A DNA stretch of 25,354 nucleotides from Pseudomonadota bacterium. GTDB taxonomy: Bacteria; Desulfobacterota; Desulfobacteria; Desulfobacterales; JBDRRP01. The notes beneath the pieces were generated by a model. The model did not search any database. It saw nothing but the letters and a program-made list of their open reading frames with translations, and was not told the origin of the DNA. Positions 1 to 25,354 of the stretch are shown piece after piece (the first letter of the stretch is position 1; every line of letters starts with the position of its first letter). The position numbers were made by a program, and so were the translations under genes. The stretch is from positions 62,001 to 87,354 of the forward strand of contig JBDRRP010000158.1 in assembly GCA_043825735.1 (NCBI GenBank), given 5' to 3'.

Positions 1-1
1 G

Positions 2-538
2 GTGGGGCTGGTCTGGTCGGGCAACCCGGATTTTGTGGACAACGCCCGCCGCGCCTGTCCCCCCGATCTCCTGCGGCCCCTGGTCGATTGCCCCGGTGCC
101 ATCTTTTACGCCCTGCAAAAAGGCGCGGCAGCCGAGTCGGCCGGCAAGGCCGCTTTGGGAGATCGGGTGCACGATCTGGCACCCGGGCTCAACGATTTCG
201 CCGATACCGCCGGCGCCATCGCGCGTCTTGAGATGATTGTTACGGTGGATACGGCCGTGGCGCACCTGGCCGGCGCCATGGGAAAACCGGTCTGGGTGAT
301 GCTTCACCATGCGCCGGACTGGCGGTGGCTCGGCACCGGCGAGACCACGGCCTGGTATCCCACCATGCGGCTGTTTCGCCAGAAAACCCCTGGGGACTGG
401 CAGCCCGTGATCAGGGAGATCCGGCGGGCGCTGGCGCTGAAGGCCGGACCCGGGATGGCGCGCTGCGGTGTGATTCATGATCGCGTATCGACGCCCGCCG
501 CCCCGGTGCCACAAACCCAAGGACGCGGCCATGAATAA
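2..538 (+). CDS. Partial (5'-truncated) GT9-like GT-B glycosyltransferase C-terminal domain, probably of a TPR-containing protein
   Basis: The open frame runs from the window edge to TAA 536-538. Motifs GLVWSGNP, LQKG, DFADTAG, VTVDTAVAHLAGAMGKPVWVML, DWRW, WYPTMRLFRQ are the same module that occurs twice in 8949..12515. Confidence 0.85.
   Translation: MGLVWSGNPDFVDNARRACPPDLLRPLVDCPGAIFYALQKGAAAESAGKAALGDRVHDLAPGLNDFADTAGAIARLEMIVTVDTAVAHLAGAMGKPVWVMLHHAPDWRWLGTGETTAWYPTMRLFRQKTPGDWQPVIREIRRALALKAGPGMARCGVIHDRVSTPAAPVPQTQGRGHE
245..297 (+). repeat. Direct repeat copy 1 (GT9-like coding segment; copy 2 at 12300-12352)
   Basis: 53 bp with 3 synonymous mismatches. The core ACGGCCGTGGCGCACCTGGCCGGCGCCATGGG (251-282) is identical to 12306-12337. 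Confidence 0.8.
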
Positions 539-2957
539 AAGACCAACACCGATAACGAGGGAAAGCACGCGCGCGTGCGACGCCCTGCTGGCCCGGGCTT
601 TGGAAGCCCACCGGCAAGGGCGGGCGGCGGCGGCCCGCGAGGGCTACCGGCAGGTGCTCTCGCACCATCCCGACCATGTGGACGCGCTCAATTTTCTGGG
701 CGTGCTCGAACAGGAGACCGGTGACATCACGGCGGCTCTGGTTCATCTGGAACGGGCGGCCTGCTGTGATCCGGGCAACGAGATTGTACTCAACAACCTG
801 GGCAACGTTTTGAAAGCGGACGGGCAGGCGGCGCGTGCCGAAGACTGTTACCGGCGTGCCGTCGCGCTCGACCCGAGCGACCCGGATCCTCACTACAATC
901 TGGCCGTGCTGCTTCAGTCCCAGGGACGACTTGACGAGGCCATGGCCGGGTATGAACGTACCCTTGGCCTGAACCCCGACGATGCCGGGGCCCTCAACAA
1001 CATGGCCGGCATTCTCAACGACCGCGGGGACGCGGCGGCGGCCGAGGCCGCTTACCGGCGCGTTTTGGCAAGCCGGCCGGACCACCCCCGGGCGCTGGTG
1101 AATCTGGCCGGTCTGCTGCTGGCACAGGGGCGACACGATGCGGCCGTCGAATGCTGCCGGCGGGCCCTGGCGGGTGCGCCCGACTACCTGGAGGCCCTTC
1201 TTTGTCTGGGCCGCGCCAGCCGCGAGGCCGGCCGTCTCGAGGACGCCCATGGCGCCTTGCAGCAGGCCGCCAAGCGGCATCCTGACTCAGTGGAGGCCCA
1301 GTTCAACCTGGGCAATGTCCTCAAGGACCTGGGAAGCTTTCCGGCGGCGGCGGCGTGCTACCGACGGGCCATCGACATCGCGCCGGACTATGCCAAGGCC
1401 TGGTGCAATCTCGGATCGATCCACCGGGAAGAGGGGAGAAACGCCGAGGCCATGACCTGCTACCAGCAGGCCGTCGCCCTGGACCCGGAATTCGCCGCCG
1501 TCTACAACAACATGAGCATCCTGCTGGCCGAAACCGGCCGCATCGGCGAGGCGCTGGCGTGCTGCCGCAAGGCCCAGCAGCTCCAGAAAGACTTCGCCGA
1601 GTCCTTCAACAACACGGCCCGGTGCCTCAAGTACAGCGGCCGGGCAGAGGAGAGCCTCGACTGGTATCGCAGATCGTTGGCCCAGTCGCCGCAGACCGCT
1701 TTCGTGCATTCCAACCTGCTCTACTGCCTGGCCTATCTGCCCCCCCGGTTGGCGCCGCCCGAGGCGGTAAGCCGCGAGCATCGCCAATGGGCGGCGATTC
1801 ACGGCGCACCGGCCCACCGGGTGATAGACAGCCACCCCAACACCCCGGACCCGGACCGGCCACTGCGGGTGGGCTACCTGTCGCCGGATTTTAGGCGGCA
1901 CCCGGTGGCCACCTTCATCACACCGGTACTGGCCGGACATGACCCTGCGCGGGTTCAGAGCGTCTGTTTTTCCGATGTGCGCAAGGCAGATGCGGTCACT
2001 GCCTCCCTGCGCGGGCTCGCCGGCGACTGGGTCGATACGGCGGGCCTGTCCGACGATCGCGTCGCCGAGACGATCGGCCGCCACCACATCGACATTCTGG
2101 TGGACCTGGCCGGGCACACGGCGGGCAACCGCATGCCGCTATTCACCCGGCGGCCGGCGCCGGTCCAGGTCACCTATCTGGGCTACCCCAACACCACCGG
2201 ACTGCCGCAGATGGACTACCGCATCACCGACGCCTGGGCGGATCCGCCCGGCGACACCGAGGCCCTCCACAGCGAAACGCTGATCCGGCTGCCTGAAGGG
2301 TTTCTCTGCTACGCGCCGCCGGTGTCAGCACCACCGGTGAGTGCACCCTTTCACACGGCCTCCGGAGGTGTCACCTTCGGTTCTTTCAACAACCTGGCCA
2401 AGTTAAATGCCGATGTTGCTGAGCTCTGGTCGCGGATTCTCGCCGCAGTACCCGGTTCTCGACTGCTTCTGAAGTTCAAAACCTTGTCCGATTCCTCTGT
2501 GCAGCGACACGTGGAGAGACTTTTCGCCGCCTGCGGCACCGGTCGGGACCGGCTGGTCTTTCACGGCTTTCTCCCCTCGGCAGGAGATCACTTCTCCCTG
2601 TATCATCAGGTGGATATCGCCCTGGACACCTTTCCCTACAACGGCACCACCACCACCTGTGAAGCGCTGTGGATGGGGGTTCCGGTGGTCGCCCTTGAAG
2701 GAAAGACCCATGCCGCAAGGGTCGGTGTCAGCATATTGACGGGGCTGGGGCTGTCCGATTTGGTCGCCCGGAGCCGGGAGGACTATATGAAAAAGGCCGC
2801 GGCCCTGGCCGGTGACCCGGCCCGGCGCGCTGCCTTGCGATCCGGCCTGCGCCCGCTCATGGAAAAGTCCCCGCTGACCGACAGTGCCGGCTTTACCAGC
2901 CGCCTCGAAACCGCCTATCGCGACATGTGGCGGCGGTGGTGCCGCAGCCATTCCTAG
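531..2957 (+). CDS. TPR-repeat O-linked glycosyltransferase, GT41 family, SPINDLY-like
   Basis: ATG at 531 has AAGGA about 7 nt upstream and overlaps the previous stop (the ORF track starts at 477). About 10 TPRs (e.g. NNLGNVLK..G....A...YRRA) precede the catalytic motifs GYLSPDFRRHPV, DILVDLAGHT, PAPVQVTYLGYPNTTG, FGSFNNLAKL and DTFPYNGTTTTCEALWMGVPVV. Confidence 0.9.
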   Translation: MNKRPTPITRESTRACDALLARALEAHRQGRAAAAREGYRQVLSHHPDHVDALNFLGVLEQETGDITAALVHLERAACCDPGNEIVLNNLGNVLKADGQAARAEDCYRRAVALDPSDPDPHYNLAVLLQSQGRLDEAMAGYERTLGLNPDDAGALNNMAGILNDRGDAAAAEAAYRRVLASRPDHPRALVNLAGLLLAQGRHDAAVECCRRALAGAPDYLEALLCLGRASREAGRLEDAHGALQQAAKRHPDSVEAQFNLGNVLKDLGSFPAAAACYRRAIDIAPDYAKAWCNLGSIHREEGRNAEAMTCYQQAVALDPEFAAVYNNMSILLAETGRIGEALACCRKAQQLQKDFAESFNNTARCLKYSGRAEESLDWYRRSLAQSPQTAFVHSNLLYCLAYLPPRLAPPEAVSREHRQWAAIHGAPAHRVIDSHPNTPDPDRPLRVGYLSPDFRRHPVATFITPVLAGHDPARVQSVCFSDVRKADAVTASLRGLAGDWVDTAGLSDDRVAETIGRHHIDILVDLAGHTAGNRMPLFTRRPAPVQVTYLGYPNTTGLPQMDYRITDAWADPPGDTEALHSETLIRLPEGFLCYAPPVSAPPVSAPFHTASGGVTFGSFNNLAKLNADVAELWSRILAAVPGSRLLLKFKTLSDSSVQRHVERLFAACGTGRDRLVFHGFLPSAGDHFSLYHQVDIALDTFPYNGTTTTCEALWMGVPVVALEGKTHAARVGVSILTGLGLSDLVARSREDYMKKAAALAGDPARRAALRSGLRPLMEKSPLTDSAGFTSRLETAYRDMWRRWCRSHS

Positions 2958-3055
2958 TGAAAACAAGGAAAAGCGCATCGGAGGGAGGAGATCTCTTTCG
3001 GCAAGAACCCATATGAAAAAATGTTCTTAGGCACCAGTTAAGGAAAGGGCCCATA

Positions 3056-4000
3056 ATGAAGATTTTAGTAACAGGCGGCGCAGGATTTATCGGCAGTTCA
3101 TTGGTAAGGAAACTTTTTGAAATGGGCAATGAAGTATCTGTAATTGATAATTTCCGAAGAGGAAATAAAATTGATCGTGATATTCAGCGAAAAATACAGA
3201 TTCACAATATAGATATTAAAAATAAACTTGCCGTTGAAAATGCATGCTTAAATATTGATATAGTATTTCATCTAGCTGCAGTTTTAGGTGTTGATATCGT
3301 TGCTGACAATCCTGTAGAAACGATGGAAACAGAAGCACTTGGCATGCTTAACATCGCAAATGCCTGCATTGTAAATAGGGTAAGAAAAATTGTTTATGCA
3401 TCGACAAGCGGAGTTTATGGACAATCGGCCATATATGATGCAGTGAAAGAAGAATATGATGTATCCCCAAAATCAAGTTACTCTATAGCAAAGCGATATA
3501 ATGAGATTTATCTCGCATCATTATACGAAGAAAAGAAATTGGAATCCGTTTCTATTAGATACTTTAATGTATATGGGCCGAAACAGGATAATCGCATGGT
3601 TATTCCGAGGTTCTTTCAGCAAGCGATGAATAATAAGCCGATCACCGTGTATGGTAATGGAGATCAGACCAGAGACTTCACTTATATAGATGATGTGGTG
3701 AATGCAACAATTTTACTTGCAAAAAAAAGTAAGGGTAGTCAGATATATAACGTTTCAAGCGAAAAAGAATACAGCATTAATCAAGTTGCTGAAAAAATAG
3801 TTGATGTTTGTGAATCAAAATCAAAAATTACATTTATCAATGCACCTAATAGTCGTTATGATTTTGAGGTGGAAAGAAGATTCGGTTCTTCTGAAAAATT
3901 GTTTGCCACTACCGGTTTTAAACCAATGACAAATTTTGATAATGGCTTAAAAAGTATACATGATTATGTATTGGCAAGCGATCAGCCTATCGAATTTTGA
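3056..4000 (+). CDS. NAD-dependent NDP-sugar epimerase/dehydratase (extended SDR); AT-rich
   Basis: Motifs ILVTGGAGFIG (Rossmann), HLAA, ASTSGVYG, YSIAK (YxxxK), RYFNVYGP and GDQTRDFTYIDD. A purine-rich RBS (AAGGAAAGG) lies upstream. Confidence 0.92.
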   Translation: MKILVTGGAGFIGSSLVRKLFEMGNEVSVIDNFRRGNKIDRDIQRKIQIHNIDIKNKLAVENACLNIDIVFHLAAVLGVDIVADNPVETMETEALGMLNIANACIVNRVRKIVYASTSGVYGQSAIYDAVKEEYDVSPKSSYSIAKRYNEIYLASLYEEKKLESVSIRYFNVYGPKQDNRMVIPRFFQQAMNNKPITVYGNGDQTRDFTYIDDVVNATILLAKKSKGSQIYNVSSEKEYSINQVAEKIVDVCESKSKITFINAPNSRYDFEVERRFGSSEKLFATTGFKPMTNFDNGLKSIHDYVLASDQPIEF

Positions 4001-4155
4001 AAACATTCGTTGGTCGAAAATATCCTGGATCGCGATGCCTATGACCGGGTTCGTCTGAACGCCGGCGGCGAGTCGGTTGTCGTTTTCCGACGCGTCCGCG
4101 TGTAGTGCGTCATCCAAACCAAGATCGGCCGATTTCCGGCTACCGTCGAAGGAAA

Positions 4156-4172
4156 CTGGCCTTGATTTTGCA
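4156..4172 (+). promoter_or_regulatory. Putative sigma54 (RpoN) -24/-12 promoter
   Basis: CTGGCCTTGATTTTGCA has GG at 4158-4159, exactly 10 nt, then GC at 4170-4171 (TGGC-N7-TTGCA). It is intergenic, about 28 nt before the ATG at 4200. Confidence 0.65.
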
Positions 4173-4199
4173 ACGATCGGTTCCGGAAAGGAGCGGTCC

Positions 4200-5834
4200 A
4201 TGCTGCACACCATTTATCGCATTTGCGATCTGCGCGACGGTCTGACCAAGATCGCTCGGATTACCAAGCGACAGTGCTTTGAGAACTTTATTGAGGTCTT
4301 CGGCACCGGCAATCTCACCGTGGTGGCGGACAACTGCCGCCCCGATACGCTGGATTTTCTCAGGGGCCTCGTTGGCGATATCCATGAGACCGCTCTGGGC
4401 AATTCGGCAAGCTTTCTCTATGCTCTGGATCTGGCCCTCAAACGATCCGACACCGACACGGTCTATCTGGTGGAAGACGACTACCTGCACCAGGCCGGGG
4501 CGACCGCCTTTCTTGCCGAAGGGCTGGAAAGGGCCGACTACGTCAGCCTCTACGACCACCCGGACAAGTATTTGGATCCCAGTCCCAACCCGCTGGTGAA
4601 ACAGGGCGGTGAGGCCACCACGGTGCTGCTCACCCGCTCCTCCCACTGGAAGCGCACCAATTCCACCACCATGACATTCGCCGCCCGCATCGGGACGCTG
4701 CGCCGGGACGCCGAGGTCCTGCGCCGGTACTGCCAGGCGCCGGTGCCCGCCGATTTTTACCTCTTCTGCGAACTGATGAAGCGCGGGCGCACCCTGATCA
4801 CCCCCATACCGGGCCGGGCGACCCACTGCGATCATTTTCCCAGCCCCTTTATCTTCGACGCCCCGCTGCCGGGTCTTGAGACCGGTAAGGCGCCCGGAGC
4901 CTGCAGCGCCGCCGTGGGCGTCGACAGGCTGTCAGACACCGCCCCCGGCAACGGGACACCGGGGCGGTTTCAGGCCCCGGTGCCGGTGATCATCCCTTTT
5001 TACAAGCGGCAGGACCAGCTCAACAAATGCCTCGCCGCCCTCAAGGCCCAGAGCTGGCCGGTTGAGATCTTCGTGCGGGACAACACCGACGACAACATCT
5101 ACTTCACCGCTGCGGTCAACGAGGGCCTGGCCCGGTTTTTGGACCGGCCCGTCGACTATCTGATGGTCCTGAACCAGGACATGTACCTGGCCCCGGACGC
5201 TGTCGAACAGATGGTGCGATTCATGGACGCCCATCCGCGCTGCGGCATCGGGGCGCCCCTCCAGCTCGCCGCCGACGATCCGGATGCGGTGATCTGGGCC
5301 GGCGGATTCGAGGCGTTTCCGGCGGGCCGCCATCAGACCGGACGGCTGGCCGAGTTCCGGCAGGACGCATCCATCGGCTGGGCCAACGGGGCCTGCATGA
5401 TGCTGCGAAAGCGCATGGTCCGGGAGATCGGGCTGCTGGACGCCGGTATGGCCTTTATCGGCAGCGACAGCGACTACGCCTTCACCGCCCGCTCCCGCGG
5501 ATGGGAGATCTGGCGGATCGCCGCAGCCAGGGGCGTCCACGCGCACGGTGCCTCGGGACAGATCACCGATCTGGCCATCGAAGCCGTCAAGCTGGACGAT
5601 CTGATGCATTTCGGTCGCAAATGGCTCACCGGCGCGCTTTTCGGGGAAATGGCCCACGAAAAGGACCCCTCGCCGCAGCAGGCCCGCGCGATCCTGGACG
5701 AGGCCCGCCGAACCCGGGCGCTGCTGAATCGCTACCGGGCCGAAGGACGCGCCGCCGGCGAGGTGCTCGACGGCGGCCGCCTGCGCCGGCCCGACGAACT
5801 GGCGCCCGCGGCCGGCGGGGCAGGGCGCCCATGA
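4200..5834 (+). CDS. Two-domain glycosyltransferase: uncharacterised GT-A-like N-terminal domain fused to a GT2 domain
   Basis: ATG at 4200 follows AAGGAG (the ORF track starts at 4077). The N-domain has YLVEDDYLH and YVSLYDHPDKY. After a Pro/Ala linker, the GT2 domain has VIIPFY, FTAAVNEG, LNQD, WANGACMMLR and DSDYAFTA. Confidence 0.8.
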   Translation: MLHTIYRICDLRDGLTKIARITKRQCFENFIEVFGTGNLTVVADNCRPDTLDFLRGLVGDIHETALGNSASFLYALDLALKRSDTDTVYLVEDDYLHQAGATAFLAEGLERADYVSLYDHPDKYLDPSPNPLVKQGGEATTVLLTRSSHWKRTNSTTMTFAARIGTLRRDAEVLRRYCQAPVPADFYLFCELMKRGRTLITPIPGRATHCDHFPSPFIFDAPLPGLETGKAPGACSAAVGVDRLSDTAPGNGTPGRFQAPVPVIIPFYKRQDQLNKCLAALKAQSWPVEIFVRDNTDDNIYFTAAVNEGLARFLDRPVDYLMVLNQDMYLAPDAVEQMVRFMDAHPRCGIGAPLQLAADDPDAVIWAGGFEAFPAGRHQTGRLAEFRQDASIGWANGACMMLRKRMVREIGLLDAGMAFIGSDSDYAFTARSRGWEIWRIAAARGVHAHGASGQITDLAIEAVKLDDLMHFGRKWLTGALFGEMAHEKDPSPQQARAILDEARRTRALLNRYRAEGRAAGEVLDGGRLRRPDELAPAAGGAGRP

Positions 5835-6553
5835 CGCCGGCTTTGGCAACCCCCTTACGAGCGCGCAGCTACTACGCCCAGTCCCGGCTGGAAGTGACCG
5901 CGCTCGTCGACCCGATCGCGGGCCGGTCCTTTCTCGACATCGGCTGCGGTGAAGGCGGTCTCGGGCGGGCCCTCAAAGATGCCGGCAGCGGACCGGTGGT
6001 GGGCATCGAAGTGGACCCCCGGGCGGCCGCGGAGGCGGCCCGGTACTACGACCGGGTCCACACTGCGGATGTGGATTCGATTTCGCCGCCCTTTTGCGCG
6101 GAAACCTTCGACCATCTGGTCTGTGCCGACATTCTGGAGCATCTGAAAGACCCCTGGGGCGTGCTCGCTCGGTTTCGCCCCGTGCTCAAGAAGAACGGGA
6201 CCCTGGTGGCCAGCATACCCAACATCGGCAACGTCCGGACCGTGACGGACCTGCTGCAGGGGCGCTTCGACTACCTGGACTGGGGAATCATGGACCAAAG
6301 CCACCTGCGGTTTTTCACCCGCGGGGGCATCGAGAAAATGCTCGCCGGGGCCGGATACACCATTTGCGACATTCGACCCAAGTGCGATCCGAATGCCGAA
6401 GGGATTATGGATCTGTGGCGGCAGCACGACATGCACCGGCGCCTGCGGGATCTGGTGATCCTCATGGGCGGGGGGCCGTTCTCGCCCACCGACCGGCACC
6501 TCGAGGAGATGCTGGTGATCCAGTACCTCGTCGTGGCCCAGCGGAGCGCGTGA
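5831..6553 (+). CDS. Class I SAM-dependent methyltransferase (probable glycan O-methyltransferase)
   Basis: ATGA overlap with the upstream stop. Motifs LDIGCGEG, GIEVD, FDHLVCADILEHLKDPW, SIPN and GIMDQSHLRFFT. Confidence 0.88.
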   Translation: MTPALATPLRARSYYAQSRLEVTALVDPIAGRSFLDIGCGEGGLGRALKDAGSGPVVGIEVDPRAAAEAARYYDRVHTADVDSISPPFCAETFDHLVCADILEHLKDPWGVLARFRPVLKKNGTLVASIPNIGNVRTVTDLLQGRFDYLDWGIMDQSHLRFFTRGGIEKMLAGAGYTICDIRPKCDPNAEGIMDLWRQHDMHRRLRDLVILMGGGPFSPTDRHLEEMLVIQYLVVAQRSA

Positions 6554-6557
6554 GCTT

Positions 6558-8927: not shown

Positions 8928-8948
8928 AAGGAGCGGGCACCGATCCAC

Positions 8949-13183: not shown

Positions 13184-13224
13184 TGTCACTATCCGGTGAC
13201 CGGCGCCCCAGGGAGGGATCGACC

Positions 13225-14316: not shown

Positions 14317-14365
14317 TCATTGCCGCAGACATTCGGACCCGCTGATTATCGCCAGGAGTCGACCC

Positions 14366-15298: not shown

Positions 15299-15368
15299 CG
15301 GCGGCCGGTCGATCAGTTCGAGGTGGTTGTGGCCGAGTTTTTCCCCGATGCTCGCGGAAAGGTTTCTC

Positions 15369-16331: not shown

Positions 16332-17482
16332 AAGAACTTGTGGTGGAAGGCTGGCGCGGCATCGCCCACTCATATGCCGTGGTCAACCAGTTCCAGCTCC
16401 TGGCCCTTGGCCGGCAGCCGGAGCTGCGGCTGTATCATCGGGACCTGCCCTTTTACGGGGGGCACTGGCGAAGCATTTCCGGTCTGTGGTCCGCGCCGGA
16501 TGAGGCCGTATTGGCACAGCTTCCCGAGCCGCCGGATCGCTGCGTGCCCGCGCTCTACCGGATCGGGTTCCCCTACGATCTTACCCCCGCCCGGGCCGAC
16601 CGGACAGTGGTTTACGGCACCTCCGAGATGCTGTCGGTGACCGATATCATGCTGGCCAGACCCGGCACTCTGGCCAGCCAGATGGCCGAAACCGACACCG
16701 TCATCACCACCCCCTCGCGGTGGTCGCAGCAGGGCTTTGTCCGCAGCGGCGCACCGGCCGAACGCGTTGCGGTGGTGCCCCACGGGGTCGACCCGGAGAT
16801 ATACCGCCCACTGGACGACACGCCGCGCGCCGCATTGCGGCAGCGGCTGGGGTGGGCACCGTATTTCATCTTTCTGAGCGTGGGCACCATGAAAGGCAAC
16901 AAGGGGCTGCGGCTGATGCTCAGGGCCCTGGCCGCATTGGCGGGCCGGTATCCGGACGTACGGCTCGTACTCAAGGGCAGCGACGCGTTGTACGGCTCTC
17001 AGCGCCTGGTGACCGAGATGGCCGACACGCTGACCGAACGCGAAAAGCAGATCGTACTGGACCGGATCTTTTATCTGGGCGGTTCCCTGTCGTTTCAGGC
17101 CATGGCCCAGCTCTACCAGGCGGCCGACGCTTACGTGACGCCCTACCTGGCAGAAGGGTTCAACCTGCCGGCGCTGGAGGCTGCCGCCTGCGGCCTGCCG
17201 GTCGTCTGCTCCCGGGGCGGGCCTACCGACGATTTCGCCCACCCGCACTATTTTTTGGGCATCGACAGCCGCCTTCAGCAAAAACGGGTGTCCGCAGTGG
17301 AGACCAACGTGTTTCTGGTACCCGATCTGGATCATCTCATCTCGCGCATGATGCAGATTGTCGACGACGCCGACCTGAGGGACCGGGTGCGCCACCATCT
17401 GCCGGCCTGGATCCATGATCGGTTTTCCTGGGGCGCGGTGGCCCGGCGTCTCGAAGCGGTCCTGTTTACCGGGCTTCTCTGA
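16328..17482 (+). CDS. Glycosyltransferase family 4
   Basis: ATGA overlap with the upstream gene. Motifs HSYAVVN, TPSRWS, VVPHGVD, FLSVG...NKG, LYQAADAYVTPYLAEGFNLPALEAAACGLPVV and FSW. Confidence 0.88.
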   Translation: MKELVVEGWRGIAHSYAVVNQFQLLALGRQPELRLYHRDLPFYGGHWRSISGLWSAPDEAVLAQLPEPPDRCVPALYRIGFPYDLTPARADRTVVYGTSEMLSVTDIMLARPGTLASQMAETDTVITTPSRWSQQGFVRSGAPAERVAVVPHGVDPEIYRPLDDTPRAALRQRLGWAPYFIFLSVGTMKGNKGLRLMLRALAALAGRYPDVRLVLKGSDALYGSQRLVTEMADTLTEREKQIVLDRIFYLGGSLSFQAMAQLYQAADAYVTPYLAEGFNLPALEAAACGLPVVCSRGGPTDDFAHPHYFLGIDSRLQQKRVSAVETNVFLVPDLDHLISRMMQIVDDADLRDRVRHHLPAWIHDRFSWGAVARRLEAVLFTGLL

Positions 17483-17568
17483 ACCCGAAGGCCGTGAAGT
17501 GACCGGCGGTGGTGACTTTGGAGATCGCCGCGATCACCGGTTGCCGGAACGACTGCACCAGGCACTCG

Positions 17569-17585
17569 CAGGCACAACAATTGCT
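17569..17585 (+). promoter_or_regulatory. Putative sigma54 (RpoN) -24/-12 promoter
   Basis: CAGGCACAACAATTGCT has GG at 17571-17572, 10 nt, then GC at 17583-17584, matching GGCAC-N5-TTGCT. It lies in the largest intergenic gap of the island. Confidence 0.6.
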
Positions 17586-17895
17586 ATTTTCCAGGGTATT
17601 GGCCCAAATGCCCGCGGCAACCGCAACAAACGCGTTGCCGGTAGATGCCGTTATCGTTTTCAACATGCTGAAAATTTAGAAAAAAACGCTATGGTTCTCC
17701 AAATTTCTGCCACTTCAGGCCCTGGTTCCATGGACCGGGGCAGCGTCAATGAAATGACCCGAATGGGGGGATCTGTTTGCAATCGGCAACGACTCGGATA
17801 CGACCCTGCGCACGGCAGGACAACCGGAGGCCCTGTGAGCGCGCTCGCGCTGCGACCTCATCGTGGCCCAGGATGCGGTTTCAATGGAGTGTATC

Positions 17896-19644
17896 GTGAC
17901 TGACGTTACGGAACAGGTTCTCGCCGAGCGCCTGGCGCGGGGCATCGATGCCCACCGTCGCGGCCGAACGGATATCGCCGAGGCCGACTATCGGGCGGTG
18001 ATCGCCGACGGGGATGCGGCGGCCGGCGCCATCCCTGTTTTGGCTGTCGCCCATGCCAATCTGGGTGCGCTGCTGCTGGACCAGGGGCGCTGTCAGGCCG
18101 CCGGTGATTATCTGGGCCATGCCGTCACGCTGGCGCCGGCGCTACCGGAGTCCCACTTCAATTTGGGCCGGATCAGGGAAATGGCCGGTGATACGTCAGC
18201 GGCGCTGATCCACTACCGCGATGCCCACCGCCGCGCGCCGAACAACGCCAAATTTCTCAGCCAACTGGTCCACGCACAGATGAAGACCTGCGACTGGGAT
18301 GCGCTGGGGCAGCGATGCCGCTGTCTGGATCAGCTCAACCGCCAGGCGCTGGCCCAGGGTCGGCCGGTGGCCGAATCGCCGTTCAAAAGCATCGCCCGAA
18401 CCGATGACCCGGCCCTCAATCTGGCCATCGCCCGCTCCTGGGCCGCCGATATAAAGCGCCGGGCGACGGCAGCGAAGGTTTCTCTGCCCCCTCGGCCCAG
18501 CCGGCGCGATGCGCGGATCATCACCGTTGGCTATCTTTCGGACCGGTTCCGTAACGCCGCCACCGCCCATCAGATGCTCAGTGTCTTCGGGCTTCACGAC
18601 CGCCGGCGGTTTCGCATCCATGTCTATTCCTACGGTGCCGACGACGGCAGCGTGTACCGGCGGCGCATCGCAGCGGACGCCGACCGCTTCGTGGACATTG
18701 TCGGTCTAAACGACGCCGCGGTGGCCCGGTTGATCCGCGAGGACGGGGTCGACATCCTCGTGGACCTCAAGGGGCATACCTACAACCACCGGCTGGGCAT
18801 CAGTGCCCTGCGTCCTGCGCCTGTGCAGATGGCCTACCTCGGTTTTCCCGGATCCACCGGTGCGGATTTCTTCGATTACATTCTTCTCGACGCAGTGGTG
18901 GCACCACCCCAGATGCGGGAGAATTTTTCCGAAGCGCCCATTTATCTGCCTCACTGCTACTACCCCACTGACTATCAGCAGCCCGTGGATTCGTGCATCC
19001 CTCGGCGCAGTGACCTGGACCTTCCCGAGTCGGCCATCGTCTTTTGCTCCTTCAACCAGGCCTTCAAGATCGATCCGGTGATGTTTGGATGCTGGATGTC
19101 GGTCCTGCGAGACGTACCGGGCAGCGTGCTCTGGCTGTCGGACGGCGGTGCGGTGGCAGCGGCCAATCTGCGCAGGGAGGCGGCGCGCCAGCAGGTGTTG
19201 CCGGAGCGATTGATCTTTGCCGGGCAACTGCCCAAAGCGCAGCATCTGGCTCGGCTGCGGCAGGCCGATCTGTGTCTGGACACGCGGGTCTACAACGGAC
19301 ACACCACAACGGCGGACGCACTCTGGGTGGGCGTGCCGGTGGTTGCCATGGCCGGGCGGCATTTCGCTTCCCGGGTCTCCGCCAGTCTGCTCACCGCACT
19401 GGGGCTCCCCGAACTTGTCGCCCGGGACTTGGAGGCGTTCCGGGAACTGGCCTTGTCTCTGGCGTGCAATCACGCGACCAGAACGGCCTTGAGGCATCAC
19501 ATCGAGCGCCTCCGGGACTGCATGCCATTGTTCGACACGCCGCGCTTCGTGCGGTACCTGGAGGCGGGGTTTGAGCGGGTGTGGCAGATTCACCACCAGC
19601 AGGAGCCACCCCGACCCATTAACATCGAAGGGGAAATGCCATGA
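17896..19644 (+). CDS. Short-TPR O-GlcNAc-transferase-like protein, GT41 family (OGT/SEC-like)
   Basis: The start is uncertain: GTG 17896 (preceded by GGAG), ATG 17884 or GTG 17863. About 3 TPRs, then CDW, GYLSDRFRNAATAH, DILVDLKGHT, PAPVQMAYLGFPGSTG, FCSFNQAFKIDP and DTRVYNGHTT.ADALWVGVPVV. Confidence 0.87.
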   Translation: MTDVTEQVLAERLARGIDAHRRGRTDIAEADYRAVIADGDAAAGAIPVLAVAHANLGALLLDQGRCQAAGDYLGHAVTLAPALPESHFNLGRIREMAGDTSAALIHYRDAHRRAPNNAKFLSQLVHAQMKTCDWDALGQRCRCLDQLNRQALAQGRPVAESPFKSIARTDDPALNLAIARSWAADIKRRATAAKVSLPPRPSRRDARIITVGYLSDRFRNAATAHQMLSVFGLHDRRRFRIHVYSYGADDGSVYRRRIAADADRFVDIVGLNDAAVARLIREDGVDILVDLKGHTYNHRLGISALRPAPVQMAYLGFPGSTGADFFDYILLDAVVAPPQMRENFSEAPIYLPHCYYPTDYQQPVDSCIPRRSDLDLPESAIVFCSFNQAFKIDPVMFGCWMSVLRDVPGSVLWLSDGGAVAAANLRREAARQQVLPERLIFAGQLPKAQHLARLRQADLCLDTRVYNGHTTTADALWVGVPVVAMAGRHFASRVSASLLTALGLPELVARDLEAFRELALSLACNHATRTALRHHIERLRDCMPLFDTPRFVRYLEAGFERVWQIHHQQEPPRPINIEGEMP

Positions 19645-20438
19645 CAACGGCCCGAATTGAGGACCGGGCCGCGCAGTACCGCAGGCTTCTCGGCGACCAG
19701 CACCAGCGCCAGGAGGGGCTGCGAAGGGGATCGGCCGAGCGGATCGTAGGAGTGCTCCGGGAGTACGTCATACCGGTTTCGGCCCTCGACGTAGGATGCG
19801 GGACCGGATCGTTTCTGGCCGCTTTAGAGGGTTCCGGTGTTACGGACCTTCAGGGGATAGAAGGCCCCTGGATCGATCCGGCCATGCTGTGCATTGCGGC
19901 CGACAGGGTCGGGACATGGGATCTGGAAAAACCCTTCGATCTGGGACGGCGCTACGATCTGGTGGTTTCCATGGAGGTGGCCGAGCATCTTGCCCCGGAC
20001 CGGGCCGACGGATTTGTGGCCGATCTGGTCCGCCATGGGGACGTGGTCCTTTTTTCCGCCGCTGTCCCGTTTCAGGGCGGCGCAGGACACGTCAACGAGC
20101 GATGGCCTTCCTGCTGGGCAGAGAAATTCGCGGGCCACGGGTTTGTCCCCGTTGACCTGTTTCGGCCGCGACTCTGGGAAGACACAACGGTGTTGTGGTG
20201 GCTGCGTCAGAACCTGCTGCTTTATGTCCATTCGCGGCGGCTTTCGTCCAATCCCCGGCTGGCGGCCGTTTATCGGGAGGGGCGGGGGAAAATGCCCCTG
20301 GACGTGGTCCATCCCGTCCTCCTTGCGCAGTACGCGCTACGAGCTGAAAGTTCCGCAGACCCGGTCCAGAGGGTGACCTCCGGCCAAGCCGGTTTCTCCT
20401 CGGCCGCCGGCTCGGCATCGAAGGAAGGAGCAATATGA
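19641..20438 (+). CDS. Class I SAM-dependent methyltransferase
   Basis: ATGA overlaps at both ends. Motifs LDVGCGTG, YDLVVSMEVAEHL and FSAAVPFQGGAGHVNE. Confidence 0.88.
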   Translation: MTTARIEDRAAQYRRLLGDQHQRQEGLRRGSAERIVGVLREYVIPVSALDVGCGTGSFLAALEGSGVTDLQGIEGPWIDPAMLCIAADRVGTWDLEKPFDLGRRYDLVVSMEVAEHLAPDRADGFVADLVRHGDVVLFSAAVPFQGGAGHVNERWPSCWAEKFAGHGFVPVDLFRPRLWEDTTVLWWLRQNLLLYVHSRRLSSNPRLAAVYREGRGKMPLDVVHPVLLAQYALRAESSADPVQRVTSGQAGFSSAAGSASKEGAI

Positions 20439-23400
20439 ACAAGGCGCGTCAACGCGATGGCACAGATACCGAAATCGCCAACTGGCTCCAGGAGTCAGTG
20501 AGCTGCCATCAAGGCGGCGATCTGGACCGGGCAGCGGCAGGCTACCGGCGGATCCTCGCCGCAGCGCCCGATCACGGGGACGCCCTGCACCTGCTGGGGT
20601 TGATCCACCTTAACCGCGAGGCGTACGAAGCCGCTGTCGATCTCATCGAACAGGCCCTCCGGCATTATCCCGACACGGCCCTTTACCACAACAGTCTGGG
20701 GATGGCGCTGATGGGCCAATCCGTGCCGGCGCAGGCCCGGAAGCATTTTGATCGCGCACTGGAACTTAAGCCCGACTACCTGGAGGCATGGTTCAACCTG
20801 GGGCGACTGCTCCGCTCGGTGGGAGAGGCGGGCAGGGCGGTGAGCTGCCTTCAAAAGGTCATCAGCATTGACGCCGGTTCGGCAATGGCCCATGCCGAGA
20901 TGGGTGAACTGCTTCTGGAGACCGGCCATGGGGGTGAGGCTGCCGAGTGTTTTAAACGTGCCCTGGTCCTGGAGCCGGAATATTTAGAGGCGCGGCACAA
21001 TCTGGGCATCGCCCTACACGATTCAGGGCGGCTCGAAGCCGCGGTATCGGTTTTCGAAGAAGTGATCGCCCGCCGCCCCGGGGAGGCTCAAGCCTACAAT
21101 CACCTGGGGGTGGTGCTTCACGATCTGGGTCGTAAAGACGCCGCCAAAGCGCGCTACCAGAAGGCGCTCGAGATCGACCCCACGCTCACCGCAGCCCACA
21201 ATAACCTGGGCAATCTGCTTCAGGACGCCGGTCACATGGCCGCCGCTGCCGACTGCTATCACCGGGCCATCGCCATCGACCCCGGATTTGCCGTCGCCCA
21301 CAACAATCTGGCCATGGCTTATCAGGAAACCGGCCAGGCCGGTGACGCCATCGCGCATTTTCAAAAAGCCATCACCCTGCGGCCCGGCTATGCCGAAGCC
21401 TGCGCCCACCTGGTGCACCAGCTTCAGCGGGTCTGCGACTGGGACCGGCTGACGGCGGCGGAACAGCGGCTCGATGCCCTGACCGGCAGGGCGCTCTCAG
21501 CCGGCCAACCCGTGGCCGAACAACCTTTTGTGAGTCTGGTCCGCGGTGCGGCGCCGGATAGGCAACTGCACATTGCCCGCTCATGGGCCGATCGCGCGGC
21601 CCGACTGGTTTCAGGTTCATGCAAGCAGTTCTCCCATTCGCACCGTACTCGGACAGAGCAACCGATTACCCTCGGATACCTGTCGGCCAATTTCCGCAAC
21701 CATCCCATGGCCCACCTGATGGCGAGCCTGTTTGAACTCCACGACCGCAGCCGGTTCCGGGTTCACGCTTACGCCTTCGGCGCCGACGATAACAGCGACT
21801 ACCGGCGGCGGATCGCTGCCGGCTGCGACCGGTTTATCGACATCGAGACCCTGGATCACGGCAAGGCCGCGGCAAGAATCCATGCCGACGGCGTCGATAT
21901 CCTGATCGACCTGATGGGCCACACCAAGGGAAACCGCATGGCCATCTGCGCCCTCAGGCCGTCGCCGATACAGGTCCGGTATCTGGGACTGGCCGGCACC
22001 AGCGGTGCGACGTTTTTCGACTACATCGTCTGCGACCGGACCGTGGTGCCGGAAGCACTGGCCGCCCACTACAGCGAACATCCCATTTACATGCCCCACT
22101 GTTACCAGGTCAACGATCACCGCCAACCCGTTTCCGAGCGGCCCTGGACGCGTCAGGAGGCGGGGCTGCCGGAAAACGGCCCGGTGCTGTGCTGTTTCAA
22201 TCATACCTACAAAATCGATGCGAGGGTTTTCCATGCGTGGATGACGGTGCTCGACCGGGTTCCCGATGCCGTGCTGTGGCTCCTGGAGACCACGACGCTT
22301 GCCAGGGAAAACCTGCTGAGGCATGCGATCTTGCACGGGATCAGCGCCGATCGTCTGGTATTTGCGAAAAAGGTGCCCAAACCCGAGCATCTGTCACGGT
22401 TGAAACTGGCCGATCTGGCGCTTGACACCCGGGTGGTCAGCGGGGCGGCCACCACCAGCGATGCCTTGTGGGCCGGTGTTCCGGTAATCACGATCCGGGG
22501 GCGCCAGTTCGCCGAAAACATGTCGGCAAGCATCCTGGCGGCCGTGGGATTGCCCGAGTTGGTCACCGAAGGGCTCGATGACTTCACGGCATTGGCAGCC
22601 AGATTGGCGTCGGACCCGCCCGCGCTGGGAGTGGTGCGTGAGAAGCTGGCGCGAAACCTGAAAACCGCGCCGCTGTTTGACACCCGGCGCTTCGCCCGCA
22701 ACCTGGAAGCCGGTTTCCATCAGATCTGGCATCGTCATGTATCCGGTCTGGCGCCGGAGCCGATTTGCATTCTCGAACCGGCCTCACCGGTGCCGTTGAG
22801 CGACAAGCAGGCAGGCGGCGACCGCGACGCCGCAACGAAAGCCGGAAAATGCGCGCAAACGTCGGCGCATCGGCAGCGGCTGGCCGTATTCTGCCGCACC
22901 GGCGCTCATTTTCTCTCCGATATTATGGGCCACTTGAAGCGGACCCACGAGATCCGCATATTCGAGGGGAACAGTGTGGGGGAAATGGCCGATCTGATGA
23001 AATGGTGCGATATCGCCTGGTTCGAGTGGTGTGATGACGCCGTGGTCAAGGCGTCGGCGCTGCCCAAGCAGTGCCGCATCGTGTGCCGGCTCCACAGCTA
23101 TGAGGCCTTCGGAGATGTGCCGTCCCGCGTGACCTGGGAAAACGTCGACGCCCTCATCTTCGTCGCCCCCCATGTTCGCGAGATCGTGGAGGCCCGGGTG
23201 CCGGACCTGGCGCGTCGGGTTCCCATACATGTCATCTACAACGGCGTGAATTTGGCGCGGTTCACTTTCCGCAATCGGCAGCGGGGATACGATATGGCAT
23301 CGGTCGGGTATATCAACCATAAGAAAAATCCGTCGTTGCTGCTGCAGTGCATCCGCGCGCTGGTCGATGTGGAGCCGCGCTTCAGGCTCCACGTGGCCGG

Positions 23401-23803
23401 CACCCACCAGGAAGAGCGTTTTCGGCTCTATGTGGATCATATGATCCTCGAGATGGGATTGACCGAGCATGTGCTCTTCCACGGCTGGGTGGAAGATATG
23501 AATGAATGGCTGGCGGACAAGCATTATCTGGTGAGCACGAGCGTTTTCGAATCCTTCGGCTACGGCATTGCCGAAGCCATGGCCGCGGGGATCAAACCGC
23601 TGATCCATAATTTTCCGGGGGCCCGAAGGCTCTTCCCGGAAAAGCTGCTGTTCAATACGGTGGGGGACATGGTCCGCATGACCCTCGAAGACGACTACCA
23701 ACCCGCCGTCTACCGGCGGTTCATCGAGGACCACTATCGGGTCGACGGTCAGCTGAAAGAAATCGAAAAAGTCCTCGCCGAGATTACTGATCGAAGAAAT
23801 TAA
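20435..23803 (+). CDS. TPR + GT41 (OGT-like) + C-terminal GT4 fusion glycosyltransferase
   Basis: AAGGAG RBS. About 9 TPRs, then CDW, GYLSANFRNHPMAHLM, DLMGHT, FNHTYKID and DALWAGVP. After a linker, a GT4 domain (about 22875-23803) carries WFEWCD, RLHSYE, NGVN, KKNP and ESFGYGIAE. Confidence 0.9.
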   Translation: MNKARQRDGTDTEIANWLQESVSCHQGGDLDRAAAGYRRILAAAPDHGDALHLLGLIHLNREAYEAAVDLIEQALRHYPDTALYHNSLGMALMGQSVPAQARKHFDRALELKPDYLEAWFNLGRLLRSVGEAGRAVSCLQKVISIDAGSAMAHAEMGELLLETGHGGEAAECFKRALVLEPEYLEARHNLGIALHDSGRLEAAVSVFEEVIARRPGEAQAYNHLGVVLHDLGRKDAAKARYQKALEIDPTLTAAHNNLGNLLQDAGHMAAAADCYHRAIAIDPGFAVAHNNLAMAYQETGQAGDAIAHFQKAITLRPGYAEACAHLVHQLQRVCDWDRLTAAEQRLDALTGRALSAGQPVAEQPFVSLVRGAAPDRQLHIARSWADRAARLVSGSCKQFSHSHRTRTEQPITLGYLSANFRNHPMAHLMASLFELHDRSRFRVHAYAFGADDNSDYRRRIAAGCDRFIDIETLDHGKAAARIHADGVDILIDLMGHTKGNRMAICALRPSPIQVRYLGLAGTSGATFFDYIVCDRTVVPEALAAHYSEHPIYMPHCYQVNDHRQPVSERPWTRQEAGLPENGPVLCCFNHTYKIDARVFHAWMTVLDRVPDAVLWLLETTTLARENLLRHAILHGISADRLVFAKKVPKPEHLSRLKLADLALDTRVVSGAATTSDALWAGVPVITIRGRQFAENMSASILAAVGLPELVTEGLDDFTALAARLASDPPALGVVREKLARNLKTAPLFDTRRFARNLEAGFHQIWHRHVSGLAPEPICILEPASPVPLSDKQAGGDRDAATKAGKCAQTSAHRQRLAVFCRTGAHFLSDIMGHLKRTHEIRIFEGNSVGEMADLMKWCDIAWFEWCDDAVVKASALPKQCRIVCRLHSYEAFGDVPSRVTWENVDALIFVAPHVREIVEARVPDLARRVPIHVIYNGVNLARFTFRNRQRGYDMASVGYINHKKNPSLLLQCIRALVDVEPRFRLHVAGTHQEERFRLYVDHMILEMGLTEHVLFHGWVEDMNEWLADKHYLVSTSVFESFGYGIAEAMAAGIKPLIHNFPGARRLFPEKLLFNTVGDMVRMTLEDDYQPAVYRRFIEDHYRVDGQLKEIEKVLAEITDRRN

Positions 23804-23879
23804 ATTATAATTTTTTCTTGTTGCGCTTGGCGAGAGGATTGTTTTTTTACGAGTTTGTCAAGTTGCATGCGGGTGAATT

Positions 23880-23924
23880 AAAAAACCAATGGCCCGACGC
23901 AGTTGCGGCGGGCCATTGGCTTTT
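23880..23924. terminator. Bidirectional rho-independent terminator
   Basis: Perfect 11-bp stem CCAATGGCCCG (23886-23896) / CGGGCCATTGG (23909-23919), with extra internal pairing CGCA/TGCG. It is flanked by A6 on the left and TTTT on the right, between convergent genes. Confidence 0.85.
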
Positions 23925-23967
23925 ATAGGGGGAAAAGCCCTTGACGGATGGGCGTTGCGCTAACGCG

Positions 23968-24390
23968 TTAGGCTACTGCCGAGGCGCGCGCCCCGTGATC
24001 GGTGGCTGGCTCCGGCGCTGTAGCGCGGAGGCCTGCGGCGATGTTGTTGTTGATATCAATGAGAATGGTCACCTTTGCAGGCTCCGGAAAAGCCATGATC
24101 TCAAAGGTGCGCCGGTCGATGAAAGCACTCAGCTGGAGCAGATCGCGTTTTAGCTTCTTGGGCAGGGGGTTGGCTTCATCGGCCAGTTCCCCCTGGAATA
24201 TGGTCCAGATGCGCTGGTTGTATCTCAGGGCATCGTCCAGCAGCCGCTGCTGCGCGGGGGTGTTCATCCAGTTGCCGATGCTGTTTTTAAGCCGGACCGC
24301 GGCCTGATTGAGGACGGCGGCCTCTGTCTCTTTGCCGGGCATCGTCGACTTGTTGACGGTCTGGTAGGCTTTCAGCGGGTTCGGATACAA
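23968..24390 (-). CDS. flaF: Flagellar biosynthesis regulator FlaF
   Basis: TTG start with AAGGAG 7 nt upstream. Motifs AYQ, ETEAAVL..AA, DAL.YNQRIWTIFQ.EL....NPLP..LK..LL.LS.FI and LIDINNNIAAGL are characteristic of FlaF. It lies directly downstream of flagellin. Confidence 0.9.
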   Translation of the reverse strand: MYPNPLKAYQTVNKSTMPGKETEAAVLNQAAVRLKNSIGNWMNTPAQQRLLDDALRYNQRIWTIFQGELADEANPLPKKLKRDLLQLSAFIDRRTFEIMAFPEPAKVTILIDINNNIAAGLRATAPEPATDHGARASAVA

Positions 24391-24447
24391 TCGGTTTCTC
24401 CTTTTCCGAGCGGCACTCAGGGCCGATGAGAGGGTCCCAATCCTTTG

Positions 24448-24497
24448 ACCGGTGCGGCCGACGCGGGCCAGGAGCCGCGCGTCGGAGTCGCACCGGT
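24448..24497. other. Long GC-rich stem-loop in the flagellin-flaF spacer
   Basis: ACCGGTGCG (24448-24456) / CGCACCGGT (24489-24497) and CCGACGCG (24458-24465) / CGCGTCGG (24478-24485), plus GGC/GCC. There is no U-tract on the coding (minus) strand. Confidence 0.6.
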
Positions 24498-24510
24498 TAT
24501 GGTCTGATTA

Positions 24511-25353
24511 TTAGAACAGTCTCAGTACTGACTGCGCCGCCTGGGAGGCCATGCTCAGCGAAGAGGTGCCCAGGGCCTGACGGGTCTGGAGCATCAGCAT
24601 GTTGGCGCCTTCCTCGTTCATGTCGGCGTTGACCAGATTGGCCGCGCCTTCTTCCAGGGTGTTGATCATTTTTTCTGTGAAGGACTGGCGTGTGGTGATG
24701 GTGGACAGCGCGTTTGAGAGCTCCTTGCTCTTGGTGCGCAAGGTCGAGCGGGCGGTATCCAGGTCGGCGATAGCCGCGGTGACCAGCGCGTCGGTGGTCC
24801 AAATGCCGGAGGCCGAGTCGATGGACAGGCCGCCGGAATCGCCGTCAAAGCCGATCACTTTCAGGTTGGCGTCGCCGGCGTTCTCGGCGAACTCCACCGT
24901 CATGGTGGACTGCTGGAGGAAATTGAGGCCTTTGTAACCGGCATCCTGGGCCAGTTCGTCGATCTGGCTGCGCAGGGTCTGAAACTGCACCAGCAGGGCG
25001 CTGCGGTCTTTGTAGTCCTGGGCCGTGGTGGTGGCCGTGGCGTCGATGGCCAGAGCGGACTGGGCGGTGGACTTGGCCGAGGCGATGAGGTCGGTGATGG
25101 CCTCGATACCGTTGTTGGCCGCCTTGATGGTTTGAATCGCTTCGCCCATTTCATCCTTGCGCTGACCAAGGTCGGTGGCCCGCTGACGGTGCCCCTGGGC
25201 GGCAAAGAAATTGATGGGATCGTCCAGGGCGGACTGGACCCTGAGCCCGGAGCTCAAACGGCTGGACGTTTTGTCCATGAGTTTGCTGGTTTCCTGGCTG
25301 CTGAAAAGCGACTGCCGCATGCCTGCCGTTAAAGAAATGCTGTTGATTGACAT
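24511..25353 (-). CDS. fliC: Flagellin (short, 280 aa, alphaproteobacterial-type sequence)
   Basis: N-terminal RLSSGLRVQSALDDPINFF and C-terminal LVNADMNEEGANMLMLQTRQALGTSSLSMASQAAQSVLRLF, ending in a double TAA. The ATG sits at the window edge, so a longer N-terminus cannot be excluded. Confidence 0.93.
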   Translation of the reverse strand: MSINSISLTAGMRQSLFSSQETSKLMDKTSSRLSSGLRVQSALDDPINFFAAQGHRQRATDLGQRKDEMGEAIQTIKAANNGIEAITDLIASAKSTAQSALAIDATATTTAQDYKDRSALLVQFQTLRSQIDELAQDAGYKGLNFLQQSTMTVEFAENAGDANLKVIGFDGDSGGLSIDSASGIWTTDALVTAAIADLDTARSTLRTKSKELSNALSTITTRQSFTEKMINTLEEGAANLVNADMNEEGANMLMLQTRQALGTSSLSMASQAAQSVLRLF

Positions 25354-25354
25354 G

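Follow-up and report, generated by a model that had tools for sequence, protein, structure and literature searches.

The window analysed here, a stretch of 25,354 nucleotides from a genome of the Desulfobacterales (GCA_043825735.1), is the final 25 kb of contig JBDRRP010000158.1 (C158) and holds the right-hand part of a glycosylation gene island that very probably has flagellin as its main target. The island (C158:21590-85803) comprises 64,214 bp and 42 genes on a single strand, the count being that of the gene caller plus two low-GC open reading frames (ORFs). It extends about 40 kb beyond the left edge of the window, to which an earlier sequence-only reading of the same DNA had assigned it. 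Three classes of glycosyltransferase (GT) guided by tetratricopeptide repeats (TPRs) are encoded, namely a GmaR-like GT2, FlmG-like GT-B modules and GT41 enzymes. We favour, with some reserve, a flagellin O-glycosylation island in which the GmaR-like GT2 would prime flagellin, the FlmG-like modules would add nonulosonate and the GT41s would be accessory. The principal features are listed below in window coordinates, unless C158 is given.

C158:59051-61069 (= L003:1051-3069), plus strand: GmaR-like TPR-GT2-TPR enzyme, 672 aa, 931 bp left of the window and directly 5' of the TPR + FlmG-like gene
1-538 (start C158:61066), plus strand: 3' end of a 490-aa TPR + FlmG-like GT-B protein; PF01075 E 6e-5; FlmG 27% over 444 aa, E 5e-27
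531-2957, plus strand: TPR-GT41 'a', SPINDLY-like, 808 aa; PF13844 E 1.6e-50
8949-12515, plus strand: double (TPR + FlmG-like GT-B) protein, 1188 aa; two full-length matches to Caulobacter FlmG
17863-19644, plus strand: TPR-GT41 'b', OGT-like, few TPRs; PF13844 E 3.3e-95
20435-23803, plus strand: TPR-GT41 'c', OGT-like, with a C-terminal GT4 fusion; PF13844 E 3e-100, GT4 E 7.5e-17
23881-23924, both strands: two-way hairpin of intrinsic-terminator type between the island and flaF; an A-run precedes it and a T-run follows
23968-24390, minus strand: flaF; PF07309 E 2e-30, NCBIfam FlaF above cut-off
24511-25353, minus strand: Caulobacter-type flagellin, short (280 aa), with a Thr-rich loop at residues 106-110

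Organisation of the island and its boundary with flagellin

All main ORFs of the window from 1 to 23803 lie on the plus strand, mostly overlapping or abutting, and all are intact; 15 plus-strand genes were scanned, including the partial gene at 1-538. On the minus strand, flaF and flagellin converge with the island, and the run of more than 23 kb of co-oriented genes described earlier is borne out. The hairpin at 23881-23924 has folding z-scores of -5.7 on the plus strand and -7.4 on the minus strand, with 0 of 200 shuffles per strand as stable. Because it folds far better than its shuffles on both strands, the terminator that the sequence-only reading had assigned jointly to the island and to flagellin-flaF is real as a sequence feature. 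A simple consensus terminator scan of the window missed this hairpin, and folding revealed it. In the host genome, the GT41, FlmG-like and GmaR-like domains are confined to this island. Furthermore, dsrA is above cut-off in the genome, and the host is therefore a sulfate or sulfite reducer.

GmaR-like and FlmG-like enzymes

The best solved relative of the GmaR-like GT2 domain is Listeria GmaR (E 1.4e-21), followed by the peptide glucosyltransferase SunS, and the DADE motif of the domain is intact. Three modules in two proteins of the window, previously described as GT9-like and taken for ordinary chain extenders, align with Caulobacter FlmG across both the TPR and the GT-B domains; they are homologues of a known flagellin initiator. 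The reference FlmG is that of Caulobacter vibrioides OR37 (L050:3154-4950), which stands beside flaF and flagellins and was identified by the published flmG primers: an exact primer scan gave nothing, and a degenerate scan gave the Caulobacter locus among 19 matches. The double protein matches FlmG twice, at 29% identity over 512 aa (E 2e-35) and at 26% over 497 aa (E 8e-28). With their TPRs the FlmG-like modules reach E values of 5e-27 to 2e-35, and their GT domains alone reach 3e-15 to 6e-17; the GT-B domain at 9870-10830, for which the Pfam match is weak (E 0.0085), matches FlmG at E 3e-15. FlmG and the double protein share the motif W-x-G...EQGxGD. A PDB sequence search with one FlmG-like domain returned nothing significant. 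GT41c matches FlmG in the TPRs only, and FlmG has no GT41 Pfam match.

GT41 enzymes

The three TPR-GT41 proteins of the sequence-only reading are confirmed by PF13844 matches above cut-off and N-terminal TPRs, and a six-frame search of the host genome found no other GT41. GT41a is closer to Arabidopsis SPY (354 bits) than to OGT (164), whereas GT41b (294 to OGT vs 175 to SPY) and GT41c (307 vs 161) fall on the OGT side. Since pairwise identities among the three are 33-48%, they are not recent duplicates. The catalytic Lys of the FNxxxK motif is kept by all three, as FNNLAK in GT41a, FNQAFK in GT41b and FNHTYK in GT41c; the role of this Lys is background drawn in part from PMC9306852. GT41a carries the SPY-type motifs FRRHP and LDTFPYNGTTT (NGTTT). 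In GT41b, NHP has become NAA by a His-to-Ala change with NGHTT kept, and in GT41c, NGHTT has become SGAAT; both changes are kept in the orthologues of two relatives, G001 and G016. In a quick tree of 54 GT41 domains, from which partial domains of <270 profile columns were left out, each orthologue trio forms a clade with 99-100% support. The GT4 part of GT41c is a separate ORF in G001. In the bolder and doubtful reading given below, the OGT-like GT41b and GT41c, whose altered active sites are conserved, may act with novel donors or may elongate glycans on a protein held by the TPRs, a role that is not known for GT41.

A divergent GT41-like clade occurs in L032, L030, L036, L025, L020 and L074, with about 25% identity and the motifs HTVG/HTIG and QSLFK; its members are sometimes fused to an FlmG-like module or adjoin Maf.

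The flagellin and its flagellar cluster

The short flagellin at 24511-25353 is the likely glycan acceptor. Its Thr 106 and Thr 108-110 align with the T103/T107 region of Caulobacter FljK, of which T103 is surface-labelled and whose surface threonines have apparent glycans (10.1101/2020.07.27.223248), and the loop of Thr 106-110 is a candidate acceptor loop. At its end, contig C55 shares an exact 141 nt with the start of the flagellin gene, which puts fliF about 6 kb upstream and adds a flagellin ribosome-binding site, a sigma-28-like promoter (agreeing with the consensus at 14 of 16 positions) and a flagellar gene cluster; the gene names on C55 come mostly from N-terminal sequence, fliF and the regulators alone having been scanned. 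Similarly, fliF lies 9-40 kb from flaF in five of five near-complete relatives.

Several further observations concern these genes. A flagellin paralogue (87% aa identity) stands alone at C107:86595-87437, and over window positions 24640-25354 read depth and a second sequence variant point to a third copy of flagellin, of about 94-100% identity, that the assembly lacks. Here flaF and flagellin are adjacent (24390-24511), and in most relatives the two are separated by a gene of about 130-140 aa. Two flagellar lineages exist within the order: the FlaF-linked flagellins that were read are short and Caulobacter-like, and other members have long FliC-type flagellins. Pilin-like genes lie past the far end of the flagellar cluster on C55.

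Distribution across the order and the choice of primer

The survey covered 201 genomes of the order with completeness of at least 90%, including the host (G000), and 41 of them carry FlaF (FlaF+). The GmaR-like GT2, searched with a single protein domain at E<=1e-30, occurs in 34 genomes, comprising 33 of the 41 FlaF+ and 1 of the 160 FlaF- genomes; it lies on flaF's contig within 43 kb in 30 of those 33, and within 7 kb in 23. GT41, searched with the whole Pfam family at E<=1e-10, occurs in 53 genomes (21/41 FlaF+ and 32/160 FlaF-), and at least 16 of the 21 FlaF+ genomes that have it carry it no more than 55 kb from flaF. The FlmG-like domain is found in 12/41 FlaF+ and 12/160 FlaF- genomes, with 10 of the former 12 having it on flaF's contig. 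Nine of the 41 FlaF+ genomes have members of all three enzyme classes within 55 kb of flaF. Because the queries differ in breadth the FlaF- comparison is unequal, yet for the FlaF+ count that difference favours GT41. A GmaR-like GT2 in 33/41 FlaF+ genomes and 1/160 others, vs GT41 in 21/41 FlaF+ genomes, points to the GmaR-like TPR-GT2 as the likelier primer and to the GT41s as putative accessory enzymes.

Maps of the flaF flanks were made for 40 loci, G050 being left out at a contig end and several loci being too short to judge, and the usual neighbours of flaF in them are convergent TPR-GT genes. The linkage of sugar islands with flagellin and flaF, which the sequence-only reading had proposed to follow by synteny, thus recurs in the order. 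Most of the window's gene order is common to G001 and G016 at 64-79% identity. In most relatives, the GmaR-like domain is fused into multi-GT proteins of 1,000-3,600 aa. Three GT41s stand beside flagellin also in G001, G016 and G114 (in tandem in G114), and flagellin islands with GT41 have already been published (PMC4875605).

That the GT41s prime flagellin, with the TPR-GT2, the FlmG-like modules and the rest extending or capping the glycan, was the original proposal and is now unlikely. GT41 enzymes as a class act directly on protein Ser/Thr or Asn, and the three here keep the catalytic Lys. Furthermore, flaF is followed immediately by a GT41 in G011, G053, G089 and G161, two GT41s stand near flaF in G064, where the GT2 query is unmatched, and GT41 is the sole GT family in the islands of 198 enterobacterial strains (PMC4875605). 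However, GT41 is unmatched in 20 of the 41 FlaF+ genomes while 33 of them carry the GmaR-like GT2, protein or peptide initiators are the nearest solved relatives of that GT2, and FlmG by itself suffices for initiation (PMC7591256), with FlmG homologues and nonulosonate genes both present in the island.

A shared cytoplasmic depot, in which the GT2 and the FlmG-like modules serve flagellin and the GT41s modify pilin, hook or cytoplasmic proteins, is quite unlikely. The best-characterised bacterial GT41 in the literature consulted modifies a pilin (PMC9306852). Among the 32 FlaF- genomes with GT41, eight have no flagellin match, including those with the most GT41 candidates and several of the largest arrays; as GT41 is present, and often expanded, in these eight, its presence does not in itself imply that flagellin is the substrate. 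In G109, which likewise lacks a flagellin match, a TPR-GT41 (L068:8986-12711) lies directly 3' of a prepilin-motif gene, an arrangement resembling the cyanobacterial ogt-pilA pair, and pilin-like genes named from N-terminal motifs alone occur in the host itself (C55:46665-50505). Against the depot, GT41 adjoins flagellin in two flagellar lineages among the flagellated relatives: Flagellin_N is matched in 24 of the 32 FlaF- genomes, and of the 15 among these with a listed GT41 position, 9 have a GT41 within 6 kb of it. G019 (L077:5617-11283) encodes, near NeuB and a flagellin, a 1,888-aa protein in which TPRs, a SPY-like GT41 whose motifs are intact and a Maf (PF01973) domain are fused. The nine genomes with a close GT41, the G114 tandem and the G019 fusion together support a flagellar role for GT41.

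In some relatives, GT41 is expanded. An open frame of 8,395 codons on the minus strand at G079:C1 ~6110236-6135404 (L071:10236-19901, L072:2-15505) holds at least 11 tandem TPR-GT41 modules, ten SPY-like and one C-terminal OGT-like, in a one-contig genome without a flagellin match. G196:C72 (L075:6397-19901) encodes multi-module GT41 proteins of 2,041 and 2,892 codons, also without a flagellin match. The four genomes G010, G020, G031 and G196, none with a flagellin match, have multi-module GT41 proteins or 28-35 GT41 candidates.

Absence of membrane and export genes

None of the 42 island genes has more than one hydrophobic window, vs 4-5 in the FlhA, FliR and FliP controls; the island thus holds no multi-pass membrane protein. 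Flippase, polymerase and ABC exporter families are lacking among the 17 window ORFs, as first noted, and equally among the 28 left-flank ORFs scanned, and the export genes that might have lain just left of the window and explained the cluster are not found in those 40 kb. The family scans of the window and left flank also gave no lipid-carrier, flippase or oligosaccharyltransferase family, and no initiating phosphoglycosyl transferase family occurs across the 64-kb island. Maf (MAF_flag10, PF01973), described as missing from the window, has no match anywhere in the host genome and matches in 8 of the 41 FlaF+ genomes.

A lipopolysaccharide (LPS) O-antigen, capsule or exopolysaccharide locus with exporters elsewhere, beside flagellin by accident, is very improbable. 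Three flippase and five ABC-2 matches do exist in the host genome, all on other contigs, and in some bacteria nonulosonate pools are common to LPS and flagellin (PMC7591256). However, the 64 kb are free of membrane proteins, initiating phosphoglycosyl transferases and exporter families, contig C62 has a NeuB of its own adjoining a flippase, and TPR-fused transferases with order-wide flaF linkage are unexpected for such a locus. Finally, it is extremely improbable that much of the island is cargo gathered or decaying at an insertion hot spot, with the extra GT41s as inactive scaffolds. This reading would fit the lost NHP His of GT41b, the SGAAT of GT41c, the recently arrived low-GC gene described below and a GT41 in pieces in G156, but the window ORFs are all intact, and G001 and G016 keep both the substitutions and the gene order at the identities given above.

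Putative nonulosonate pathway and proposed mechanism

The left part of the island carries a set of sugar genes 25-34 kb left of the window:

C158:28230-29318: NeuB+SAF synthase
C158:29315-30370: PseG-like protein
C158:36326-37168: cytidylyltransferase

It also carries two DegT aminotransferases, a formyltransferase, a deacetylase, a GNAT, an amidotransferase, five radical-SAM domains (SAM, S-adenosylmethionine), methyltransferases and more TPR-GTs. Pse (pseudaminic acid) and Leg (legionaminic acid) family scores are all below the NCBIfam cut-offs (NeuB 276 bits, PseI 205, PseG 79, PseC 353), which assigns the sugar no further than to the nonulosonates, and the island scans gave no PseB or LegB above cut-off. 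The absence of Pse/Leg genes noted earlier accordingly holds for the window and fails for the island, where NeuB, PseG-like, cytidylyltransferase and DegT genes stand further left.

From the gene content, homologies, intact motifs, absence of membrane proteins and linkage, all directly observed, we infer the following catalytic route. The left half would make activated sugars in the cytoplasm, among them a CMP-nonulosonic acid as well as amino and deoxy sugars, with UDP-xylose as a possible further product, to be tailored by methyl, formyl, acetyl, amide and radical-SAM chemistry, as the gene families suggest. To judge by homology and conservation, TPR domains would hold unexported flagellin, and the lineage-wide GmaR-like TPR-GT2 is most likely the enzyme that places the first sugar on surface Ser/Thr. 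Transfer of the nonulosonate, whether to flagellin itself or to its glycan, most likely falls to the three FlmG-like modules. The three GT41s, which belong to two clades and probably use different donors, would form an accessory layer acting at further sites or branches, and the non-TPR GT2, GT4, GT8 and GT47-like enzymes together with the methyltransferases would extend and cap the chains. The glycosylated flagellin would then leave through the flagellar export machine, a route established in other flagella, and on this route neither flippase nor ligase is needed. A bolder version, in which up to seven TPR-guided modules (one GmaR-like GT2, three FlmG-like and three GT41) from three unrelated initiator classes decorate one flagellin, each with its own donor and site, is doubtful.

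What remains of the original interpretation is the cytoplasmic flagellin glycosylation island, upheld by the lack of multi-pass proteins, the location of flippases elsewhere and the linkage to flagellin and flaF across the order; that it was built on GT41 primers is not supported.

A number of observations, besides the GT41-bearing relatives without flagellin and the pilin-linked GT41 of G109, weigh against the flagellin reading preferred here. The GmaR match is limited to residues 7-96 of the 225-aa GT2 query, and this query is unmatched in 8 of the 41 FlaF+ genomes. The FlmG-like modules, at 26-29%, fall below orthologue-level identity, as against 43% between tested FlmGs (10.1101/2022.03.25.485807), and the TPR-GT9-like family to which they belong is very large and reaches 12 of the 160 FlaF- genomes. 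As relatives share traits, the counts are not independent, and Fisher values are descriptive only. The promoter search of the island yielded neither a conserved flagellar promoter nor a convincing sigma-28 site; five island genes are preceded by sigma-54-like sites with two mismatches, and the one site compared with a relative is not conserved. Overlaps in the assembly graph such as the one that joins C55 to C158 are common in this assembly, with 56 end matches of the kind. Moreover, the first 372 nt of flagellin have a read depth of about 50 vs about 30 elsewhere, and a second variant there differs from the C107 paralogue; a further near-identical flagellin copy therefore probably lies at the contig break. 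On expression, searches of RNA contigs returned 0 and 3 short pieces, which is evidence neither way.

Other genes of the window

The remaining genes of the window, all on the plus strand, are the following:

3056-4000: NAD-dependent epimerase/dehydratase; GC 0.34, third-position GC (GC3) 0.26
4200-5834: two-domain GT-A protein, a putative GT (EDD motif) plus GT2, from family scans
5831-6553: SAM methyltransferase; PF13489 E 9e-16
6558-8927: three-domain protein, GT2-like plus weak methyltransferase plus GT4-like, from family scans
12512-13183: putative GT8-like GT-A with a DAD motif; glycogenin matches weak, E 0.28-1.2
13225-14316: GT4-like GT-B; Atlas feature score 0.98 to Glycos_transf_1 clusters
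14366-15298: hypothetical protein; GT assignment without support
15348-16331: GT47/RXYLT1-like; PF03016 E 3.5e-5, below cut-off
16328-17482: GT4; PF00534 E 2e-17
19641-20438: SAM methyltransferase; PF13489 E 6e-8

About 16 GT domains had been counted in the window, of which 11 have direct family support, that at 9870-10830 being the weakest of them, four have indirect or weak support and one, at 14366-15298, has none. In the first domain of the two-domain protein (4200-4940), support is weak, with a GT2 match in two of eight aligned sequences, and the C-terminal third of 6558-8927 is GT4-like (NCBIfam E 9e-4). Two of the three methyltransferase domains read earlier are clear (5831-6553 and 19641-20438), and the third, internal to 6558-8927 at 7341-7910, is weak (E 0.006). 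A structure model of 12512-13183, with a pLDDT (predicted local distance difference test) of 42, gave no fold match at E<=0.001. The protein of 14366-15298 has no family match and its single-sequence model is unusable (pLDDT 33); a homologue in G016 is 72% identical. Viral scans with three orphan proteins returned 0, 1 and 8 relatives.

The epimerase gene at 3056-4000, whose neighbours have a GC of about 0.65, is missing from the corresponding place in both G001 and G016 and is probably a recent single-gene insertion. The 380-bp gap at 17483-17862, 5' of GT41b, contains an AT-rich stretch with weak similarity in G016 and none in G001, possibly an internal promoter. Outside the island, 12 kb to its left, a surface protein of 3,045 aa that combines Ig-like and beta-helix domains (C158:118-9255, L004:118-9255) has an export-signal-like N-terminus. 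It was considered as a glycan acceptor and set aside, as no such protein lies in about 28 kb past the matching boundary in G001.

Comparison with known systems

The literature search, in which subscription journals were poorly covered, found neither an experimental test of GT41 on flagellin nor an island in which the three initiator classes occur together, and a search for flagellin glycosylation in this sulfate-reducer group gave no paper on it among those listed. If the bolder version with three initiator classes is true, the island would represent a multi-initiator flagellin glycosylation code and the first biochemical case of GT41 on flagellin in the literature searched. A small, defined acceptor beside SPY-like, OGT-like, FlmG-like and GmaR-like enzymes could allow primers to be told from extenders and an action of GT41 on flagellin to be recognised, and soluble TPR-guided O-glycosyltransferases are useful glyco-engineering parts. 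In addition, the order-wide survey suggests that in FlaF-type sulfate reducers the core flagellin transferase is probably the GmaR-like TPR-GT2. FlmQ of Burkholderia cenocepacia is probably TPR/OGT-like and, if so, would be a tested GT41-type precedent. By deletion, this protein (BCAL0111) is a flagellin glycosyltransferase (PMC4462625).

In the enterobacterial flagellin islands, GT41/SPINDLY is carried by 198 strains in 14 of 42 island types, as predicted by genome comparison (De Maayer & Cowan 2016, PMC4875605). These islands resemble the present one in combining GT41, methyltransferases, aminotransferases and formyl/acetyltransferases beside flagellin; they have 1-3 GTs of one family each, whereas 15-16 GT domains of several families occur in the window here and the whole island spans 64 kb (PMC4875605). 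In Caulobacter crescentus and Brevundimonas subvibrioides, FlmG suffices to attach Pse or Leg to flagellin (PMC7591256; 10.1101/2022.03.25.485807). FlmG systems share with the island the TPR + GT-B architecture, the EQGxGD-type domain, a FlaF-type short flagellin, and a NeuB-family synthase and cytidylyltransferase in the locus. They differ in using one enzyme and a single nonulosonate with no other GT needed, whereas three modules in two proteins with 26-29% identity are present here.

Listeria GmaR (PDB 22ao), a GT2 + TPR protein, adds GlcNAc to flagellin (PMC9638930). It combines GT2 with TPRs in the same manner as the island's most conserved enzyme, whose best solved relative it is, but in the latter the TPRs flank the GT2 on both sides. 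Arabidopsis SPINDLY (7Y4I), metazoan OGT (5A01, 3PE3) and XcOGT (2JLB) have the same TPR-GT41 fold with the catalytic Lys, OGT being a transferase of GlcNAc and SPY one of fucose to protein Ser/Thr; GT41b and GT41c differ in active-site motif changes that are conserved, and GT41c in its fusion to GT4. Synechococcus elongatus Ogt is a cytoplasmic TPR-GT41 that glycosylates type IV pilin (PMC9306852). As here, it is encoded beside its filament subunit, and it is needed for that subunit's glycosylation; the type IV pilin acceptor and a single enzyme without a large sugar island set it apart (PMC9306852). Flagellin glycosylation islands, including those with GT41, are thus already known, and what is unusual here is the size of the island and the stacking of three initiator classes within it.

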